IMG/VR virus record: IMGVR_UViG_2648501150_000028
Length of the DNA stretch: 6,008 bases
Direction: 5' to 3' (one strand)
From: a virus
Taxonomy: Duplodnaviria > Heunggongvirae > Uroviricota > Caudoviricetes
Below the pieces are notes generated by a model. The model did not search any database, was not told where the DNA came from, and saw only the letters and a program-made list of their open reading frames with translations. The translations under genes were made by a program, and so were the position numbers. Position 1 is the stretch's first letter. Every line of letters starts with the position of its first letter. Below, piece after piece: positions 3,210 to 4,105 of this stretch.

Positions 3210-3425
3210 ATGGCTGACATACTCAGGGAAATCACCGCATGGATACTGATTCTTACTGGCCTGGCGACATGCCTCAGTGCGGGGGCAGCCCTGGCTGCCC
3301 TGCTGATGCACATAACAACACAGTGGTTATGGGAAAAGCTTAAAGCAGCATACAGCCTGAAAGAGCTGTCCGACGCTGTCCGGGCATGGAAACGGCAGAA
3401 AAATACCGGAGATACAGAACAATGA
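3210..3425 (+). CDS. small membrane protein (71 aa, one predicted transmembrane helix)
   Basis: RBS GGGAGG 3198-3203, ATG 3210. Hydrophobic segment ITAWILILTGLATCLSAGAALAALLM followed by a charged C-terminal tail. Stop TGA 3423-3425 overlaps the next start (ATGA). Confidence 0.6.
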   Translation: MADILREITAWILILTGLATCLSAGAALAALLMHITTQWLWEKLKAAYSLKELSDAVRAWKRQKNTGDTEQ

Positions 3426-4105
3426 CAGACCAGAATAAACACATTGAGAAACTGAAAAAGTTGCTGGCGCTGGCCGCATCCGGCAACCCGCACGAGGCCG
3501 CTCTGGCACTGTGCCGAGCCCGTAAACTGATGGATGTTCACGGCATCACACATTCCGACATTGCTATGAGTGATATTGATGAAACCATCAGTCACTACTG
3601 GCCGACAGGCAGTCTCCGTCCACCGCGCTACATGCTGGGCCTGATGAACATCATCCGCGAGGTATTTGGTGTTAACTCCATCATTCACCCCGGCACGCAT
3701 CCGTCTGTGGGGTTCTACGGCAACCGGGAACGTGCGGCACTGGCTGCATACACCTGGGAAGTGCTGGCCCGTCAGCTGAAAAAGGCGCGTCAGCAGTATA
3801 TCAGTGCACAGAACAAAAGAATAAAAACCGCCACCCGCACCAGCCGTGGAGACCAGTTTGCCGAAGGCTGGGTGCTGGCCGTTATCAGTGAAATACAGTC
3901 CTTTGCCCTGACCGATGATGAGCGTGAACTGATGCAGCAGTGGCTGGAACATAAATACCCGCAGACGCAAACCACCAGGGCGCGTAAACCGGGAAGAAGC
4001 CGCAATGGCGACGCCTCGCGCTATGCGGGGTTTCGTGAAGGGCAGAACGTCAGACTGCACCGCCCGGTCAGTGGGCAGGAACAACAGAAACTGGAGGCCA
4101 GATGA
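3422..4105 (+). CDS. phage protein with a DUF2786-like N-terminal motif, function unknown
   Basis: ATG 3422 (RBS GGAGA 3408-3412) preferred over the in-frame ATG 3386, which has no RBS and would overlap the upstream gene by 40 nt. N-terminal KLKKLLALAASGNPHEAALALCRARKLM matches the motif I associate with the phage/plasmid DUF2786 family; the domain name is from memory. Basic C-terminal tail. Confidence 0.6.
   Translation: MTDQNKHIEKLKKLLALAASGNPHEAALALCRARKLMDVHGITHSDIAMSDIDETISHYWPTGSLRPPRYMLGLMNIIREVFGVNSIIHPGTHPSVGFYGNRERAALAAYTWEVLARQLKKARQQYISAQNKRIKTATRTSRGDQFAEGWVLAVISEIQSFALTDDERELMQQWLEHKYPQTQTTRARKPGRSRNGDASRYAGFREGQNVRLHRPVSGQEQQKLEAR

Follow-up and report, generated by a model that had tools for sequence, protein, structure and literature searches.

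The 6,008-nucleotide stretch of DNA analysed here (IMG/VR virus record IMGVR_UViG_2648501150_000028; hereafter the window) carries the early operon of a BcepMu-like transposable E. coli prophage, and within that operon a gene at 3422-4105 that encodes a basic protein of 227 residues (~25.8 kDa). We are all but certain that this protein belongs to the DUF2786-DUF7168 family (phrog_421), of which it is a typical full-length member. As to what it does, we tentatively favour a non-enzymatic accessory protein, made early, that would bind either nucleic acid or a factor of DNA metabolism.

Evidence of family membership came from profile searches. The hidden Markov model of DUF2786 (PF10979) in Pfam matches residues 8-44 (E 6e-10, 39.3-39.4 bits against a gathering cut-off of 23.9; model positions 3-40 of 40), a match that takes in the motif LLALAASGNPHEAALALCRARKLM (residues 14-37, nt 3461-3532) and so bears out the DUF2786 assignment of the original prediction. 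A second Pfam model, DUF7168 (PF23771), covers residues 46-189 (E 1e-25, 90.3 bits against a gathering cut-off of 25.5; model positions 2-139 of 140), and the PHROG profile phrog_421, labelled 'unknown function', runs from residue 1 to 226 of 227 (E 2.7e-76, 257 bits; profile positions 3-240 of 241). The end-to-end PHROG match, taken with the two Pfam domains, means that the whole protein – tail included – is a catalogued unit. This leaves no place for the long C-terminal extension that had been proposed to follow the motif: that extension, put at about 180 residues and by our count 190, is for the most part DUF7168, lies within phrog_421, and is folded as far as residue 210 in AlphaFold2 models.

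The family is large and uniform. A profile search of 1.84 billion representative proteins returned 11,493 clusters at E<=1e-3, of which 866 reach E<=1e-30. Nearly all of the best 150 are 217-249 residues long and match end to end; at 50% identity the family numbers more than 11,000 representative clusters with a very uniform architecture of ~230 residues. Domain fusions that might hint at function were absent from the 120 best of 1,006 diverse-profile hits, each of which has just DUF2786 and DUF7168, and the protein itself has no NCBIfam match. As an object the protein is already known: identical entries are public and are named by the two Pfam domains (in RefSeq, 'DUF7168/DUF2786 domain-containing protein'). 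It is 99.6% identical to protein XRL29416.1 of Escherichia phage PhiKM, and both this protein and the RefSeq E. coli entries have the same two domains, length and tail, with nothing notably different. In the literature DUF2786, DUF7168, PF10979, PF23771 and phrog_421 appear as incidental table entries only; we found no functional study.

AlphaFold2 yielded a single confident fold. With 37 sequences in the alignment the mean predicted local distance difference test score (pLDDT) was 87.0 and the predicted template modelling score (pTM) 0.78, rising to 91.7 and 0.83 with 107 sequences, and secondary structure was identical in the two models. Residues 1-210 form one compact unit and low confidence is limited to 211-227. 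Three N-terminal helices (3-18, 23-40, 44-49) are followed by a beta-alpha-beta-beta-alpha core (52-57, 69-82, 85-89, 95-101, 102-129) and by further helices at 136-155, 165-178 and 196-207. Across residues 46-210 pLDDT is roughly 89-98 per 10-residue block; it is 94-95 at helix 196-207 and up to residue 210, and then falls to 60 and 47. Because helix 196-207 is confidently modelled and only 211-227 is not, about half of what the original prediction took for a tail lies in the globular domain. On these models the protein has a compact two-part fold, a three-helix DUF2786 module joined to an alpha/beta DUF7168 module, with the first half of the 'tail' predicted to pack on the latter.

A critical question is where, within this fold, conservation and charge reside. 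Both were assessed over 150 representatives with pairwise identity of 50% or less. Strong conservation falls mainly on hydrophobic or small residues (among them L17, A26, A27, A29, A33, L36, M37, L74, F82, F98, G100, A108, Y110, V114, L115, W150 and G203), while a conserved S20-x-N22-x-x-E25 pattern at the start of helix 2 is probably a helix-capping box. The polar residues that are conserved are basic: K10, K12, K13, R117, R123, K132, R133, K135, K/R139 and R142, with R123 invariant in 107 sequences. No His/Cys/Ser/Asp constellation of the kind found in enzymes is conserved in the family alignments. We infer that the protein is not an enzyme, because the residues that never vary are hydrophobic, are Gly or Ala, or cap helices, and no constellation of catalytic type is kept.

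The basic element conserved across the family is internal. The helix-loop-helix at residues 117-143 (27 residues) has a family median net charge of +8.5 and is positive in every representative (+9 in our protein). The linker at 186-196 is positive in 86% of representatives, with a median of +2 (here +5), and the terminal tail at 197-227 is positive in 47%, with a median of 0 (here +2). Whole-protein isoelectric point (pI) is 9.95 against a family median of 9.56. The last 38 residues of our protein (190-227) hold seven Arg and one Lys to four acidic residues, giving a net charge of +4 and a pI of 11.3, so that the Arg/Lys-rich tail described in the original prediction is real in this sequence; it is largely specific to the lineage, the positions conserved across the family being Gly and hydrophobic. 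What the family does conserve at the C-terminus is a pattern of another sort: G203 in 100% of representatives, G207 in 80%, L212 in 85%, G/P215 in 84%, V216 in 65%, G218 in 74% and L/I224 in 86%. Our protein bears this motif in full, beyond the reach of the Pfam models, and in light of the predicted structure the pattern reads as a packed helix of GxxxG type followed by a conserved but flexible peptide. A clamp-binding or ssrA-like motif at the C-terminus was considered and dropped: the enterobacterial ending 'SGQEQxKLG' is not family-wide, only L224 being kept.

These data bear directly on the idea, put forward with the original prediction, that a DUF2786 head carries a largely unstructured Arg/Lys-rich tail and that the tail itself binds nucleic acid. 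The charge of the last 38 residues and the prevalence of a basic linker lend it something, but the region concerned is largely folded, most of it is a recognised domain, and the segment beyond the linker is neutral family-wide, with Gly, Leu and Val rather than Lys or Arg at its conserved positions. We consider tail binding improbable. If the family binds nucleic acid at all, the internal helix-loop-helix at 117-143 is the better candidate.

Sequence searches of the PDB, with the single protein and with a 37-sequence profile, returned nothing below E 0.1, and no solved structure matched significantly: only a weak KH-like likeness of the core and an Sgt2-N-like likeness of the helical N-terminus emerged. 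The DUF7168 core resembles, below significance, the type I KH domains of MEX3C (KH2, 5wwx), KSRP (KH3, 2hh3) and hnRNP K (KH3, 1zzi). Type I KH topology is beta-alpha-alpha-beta-beta-alpha; our core is modelled as beta-alpha-beta-beta-alpha, with no first short helix predicted in residues 58-68 – the most variable and gappiest part of the family alignment – and DUF7168 has in addition three extra helices and the packed tail helix. The KH GXXG loop is absent from the equivalent segment (residues 57-70, SHYWPTGSLRPPRY), and no Pfam KH model is listed even at E<=10, nor is there sequence similarity to KH. Given the lack of both loop and Pfam match, the predicted fold is KH-like in topology at best and does not make the protein a member of the KH family. 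The N-terminal helices match the Sgt2/SGTA homodimerisation domain (3zdm, 4cpg, 4asv) at 4-9% sequence identity, but small helical bundles match many things, and the same hit list includes de novo designs.

Further insight into function comes from the company that the gene keeps. Besides that of the window, six Mu-like elements have it in their early operon. One BcepMu-like prophage with the gene in its early operon is that of Marinobacterium (L092), where the operon, as in the window, reads outward to the prophage end. Prophages with Mu-family transposases carry the gene in Aeromonas (L084), in Neisseriaceae (L093), in locus L094 and on an IncHI2 plasmid; L094 is the exception in having GemA upstream of the gene. 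Among Pseudomonas transposable phages, JBD24 gp17 and an ORF of phage B3 (open reading frame, 1905-2513) are ~33-36% identical to our protein over 89-94% of its length. In the D3112-like JBD24, gp17 occupies the same slot in the early operon, between gam-like genes and gemA/mor; these Pseudomonas phages belong to other lineages with other transposases, and their homologues have a diverged extreme C-terminus and unrelated small neighbours. Phage Mu has gp11 and gp12 in this slot, in its semi-essential early region between gam and gemA, but neither shows detectable homology to our protein (hhalign probability 0.2% and 2.7%). The family is absent from phage Mu, and tblastn hits in Escherichia phages amount to two records only.

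The gene is not confined to transposable phages. In lytic Bradleyvirinae, homologues lie in the replication region with genes for an exonuclease, an NTP (nucleoside triphosphate) pyrophosphohydrolase, a DNA-binding protein, DNA polymerase I and a helicase (PMC9206674); a Tedavirus homologue lies in the DNA-polymerase/nucleotide-metabolism region (PMC9206674), and a Komagataeibacter prophage-like island has its homologue in the early operon. An island of Limnohabitans radicicola resembling an integrative and conjugative element (ICE), with ParA and DUF2857, has the gene overlapping by 4 nt the start of a 574-residue C5 DNA methylase gene (L091, 6001-8417), an overlap that hints at co-expression with a function of anti-restriction type. 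Plasmids add 303 matching records, 228 of them from Acinetobacter and 244 conjugative; in Acinetobacter conjugative plasmids the gene is part of the backbone. On one of these, pA230-1, for which a position in the leading region was considered, it sits in a ~30-kb same-strand block of hypothetical genes, with the genes for the coupling protein and relaxase ~21 kb away and no annotated oriT. Across eight contexts no conserved translationally coupled partner gene was found, and neighbours are unrelated except between two close Bradleyvirinae phages. Since the neighbouring small genes change from setting to setting, the protein is best viewed as a standalone module, one that most likely acts early after the element enters a cell or is induced.

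How, then, might such a protein work? Under the reading that we tentatively favour, the electropositive helix-loop-helix at 117-143, mounted on the KH-like core, would bind nucleic acid or a DNA-metabolism complex assembled on it; the DUF2786 helices would serve in self-association or in contact with a partner; and the last ~17 residues, conserved but flexible, would serve to dock the protein on a partner. The outcome would be assisted establishment or replication of mobile DNA.

A different proposal is that the protein is an adaptor in host takeover, or against defence or restriction, working by protein-protein contact: its target would be a conserved host protein, for example of replication, repair, proteolysis or immunity, contacted through the invariant helical DUF2786 module or through the conserved, flexible peptide at the C-terminus (L212...G218...L224), and the basic surface would be incidental. 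The position in an accessory region, the occurrences on plasmids and an ICE, and the methylase neighbour all fit. Against it, the C-terminal residues correspond to no known motif (they are not, for example, of the QL[SD]LF clamp type) and the presence of the gene in the replication modules of lytic phages accords at least equally with a role in DNA metabolism. The Pfam scan of the protein found no Ard- or Acr-type family, and PADLOC models gave no family at E<=0.01 for it and seven neighbouring proteins, though that library covers defence rather than anti-defence. We regard an adaptor role as rather unlikely.

A bolder and more doubtful extension of the nucleic-acid-binding reading is that DUF2786-DUF7168 is a degenerate KH-like binding module serving as a widespread, standalone 'establishment' factor of transposable phages, lytic replication modules, ICEs and conjugative plasmids alike. 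On entry or induction such a factor would coat or mark the DNA of the element, or its replication intermediates, via residues 117-143, and would recruit or block a conserved host factor via the C-terminal peptide. We think this scheme distinctly unlikely.

All of the above presupposes that the gene is genuine and correctly delimited. Comparison with 16 related loci (51-98% protein identity) shows the frame to be kept, as the original prediction needed it to be: the ratio of nonsynonymous to synonymous substitution rates (dN/dS) is 0.07-0.27, mostly 0.1-0.16, and changes at third codon positions dominate. This pattern marks 3422-4105 as a gene under purifying selection. On the opposite strand lies a 333-residue ORF (3083-4084, -), also opposite the upstream neighbours of the gene, and its mere existence might suggest that 3422-4105 is a chance ORF and that the real gene is the antisense one. 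But neither Pfam nor PHROG has a family that matches the antisense ORF, while the plus-strand frame combines strong purifying selection with thousands of homologues and two Pfam domains; the antisense ORF is a shadow of the coding strand, and the chance that 3422-4105 is not a functional gene is negligible.

The coordinates first given for the gene also stand. We discarded a longer, mechanically derived ORF with its start at 3386: a start at 3422 is shared by homologues, by the identical database entry (P0001, 227 residues, 886 member sequences) and by the PhiKM annotation, and is further backed by a GGAG element and by an ATGA overlap (3422-3425) in which the ATG shares its bases with the stop of a preceding 71-residue ORF. 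Such an overlap suggests translational coupling to the upstream ORF; at the other end, the ORF that follows begins with an ATG at 4102 that overlaps the TGA stop (4103-4105). No promoter- or terminator-like site stands above chance near 3422-4105, which makes this an internal, translationally coupled gene of the operon.

As a discovery the gene is ordinary: the exact protein is already public, and roughly every ninth complete E. coli genome has its carrier prophage. The remaining interest lies in the family as a whole, with its thousands of uniformly built members, a confident predicted fold for which there is no solved relative, and a fixed early-operon position in transposable phages from several unrelated lineages. 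A function, once assigned, would extend to thousands of mobile-element genes together and would fill in one part of the 'semi-essential' early region of Mu-like phages, which is poorly understood.

Table 1. Features of the prophage early operon and of the DUF2786-DUF7168 gene, in window coordinates.
Feature	Position	Strand	Basis or remarks
Early operon of BcepMu-like transposable prophage	293..5502	+	Pfam/PHROG matches; 99% identity to PhiKM; breakpoint analysis
MuB-like AAA ATPase	293-1498	+	Pfam/PHROG
Gam	1798-2328	+	Pfam/PHROG
Short MazG-like NTP pyrophosphohydrolase, 98 residues	2899-3195		Pfam/PHROG
GGAG, Shine-Dalgarno-like element	3408..3411	+	10 nt before ATG 3422; read directly in the sequence
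Gene for 227-residue DUF2786-DUF7168 protein	3422..4105	+	ORF list; identity to P0001; phrog_421 end to end; dN/dS; stop codon 4103-4105
DUF2786 domain, residues 8-44	3443..3553	+	Helical hairpin and third short helix (H3-18, H23-40, H44-49); holds LLALAASGNPHEAALALCRARKLM
DUF7168 domain, residues 46-189	3557..3988	+	Pfam PF23771, E 1e-25; AlphaFold2 models; weak KH-like structural matches; core E52-57, H69-82, E85-89, E95-101, H102-129, then H136-155, H165-178
Conserved basic helix-loop-helix, residues 117-143 (RQLKKARQQYISAQNKRIKTATRTSRG)	3770..3850	+	Conserved R117, R123, K132, R133, K135, K/R139, R142; family-wide electropositive element
C-terminal 38 residues, 190-227	3989..4102	+	Basic linker 190-196; packed helix with GxxxG-type motif (G203...G207); low-confidence yet conserved end (L212, P215, V216, G218, L224)
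GemA	4530-4979	+	Pfam/PHROG
Mor	4951-5340	+	Pfam/PHROG

The prophage as a whole is readily placed. Over positions 1-5502 it shares 99% identity with Escherichia phage PhiKM, which is classified in Bcepmuvirus, and the genes follow one another on the same strand in the order B, Gam, ..., the DUF2786-DUF7168 gene, ..., GemA, Mor (Table 1). At 80% coverage or more the prophage region is present in 619 of 5,426 complete E. coli genomes, 99-100% identical, and in several of these the DNA around the gene is 100% identical. A scan of the window against Rfam found no match.

On either side of the gene are small proteins of unknown function. Two appear to be hydrophobic, one of 71 residues immediately upstream (3210-3425, phrog_3958) and one of 68 residues downstream (4322-4528, phrog_6436), the latter separated from our gene by a 76-residue ORF (4102-4332, phrog_3681). 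Overlapping start and stop codons join all three to the gene, and the three small ones are specific to this phage group. Of phrog_2245, the 98-residue MazG-like protein covers the C-terminal half alone (profile positions 113-211 of 218). The lytic phage vB_Sm_QDWS359 likewise has a nucleotide pyrophosphohydrolase gene, four genes upstream of its DUF2786 homologue, which could be a weak recurring association or a coincidence. Elsewhere in the operon the PhiKM record has a minus-strand hypothetical coding sequence that corresponds to window 2339-2560, an ORF without a PHROG match, and overlapping it is a plus-strand ORF of 64 residues (2426-2620), with two CxxC pairs and an end-to-end match to phrog_3401 (E 2e-40). 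The record has probably been annotated on the wrong strand here.

PhiKM, the E. coli genomes and at least 23 IMG/VR loci all cease to resemble the window at positions 5502-5506 (...TCTAATCA), past which each locus continues with a different flank. We read 5502 as the end of the prophage and the pattern as the signature of a transposable prophage inserting at random; since the shared similarity ends here, the early operon reads outward to the prophage end. The flank (5503-6008) shares 99.8% identity with orf46, the replication-protein gene of the lambdoid phage cdtI, from 180 nt into that gene onward, and the plus-strand frame from 5504 is open to the end of the window; its translated product matches nothing in Pfam or NCBIfam. 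It appears that a lambdoid prophage was already resident and that transposition of the Mu-like prophage into its replication gene split that gene in two. We found the 5502/5503 junction in none of the 5,426 complete E. coli genomes, and it could instead be an assembly chimera. Within the lambdoid replication gene, at 5589-5759, are iteron-like direct repeats – 2.4 copies of a 66-bp unit at 96% match, or alternatively 7.7 copies of a ~21-bp unit – which are probably the lambdoid origin. The PhiKM 'partial genome' (L001, PQ738613) also continues past the prophage end: positions 8503-9800 hold an ORF for an 'Fe2+ ABC transporter permease' and then tail-fibre genes on the opposite strand, so that the two ends of the phage may be joined in this record, possibly across a piece of packaged host DNA.
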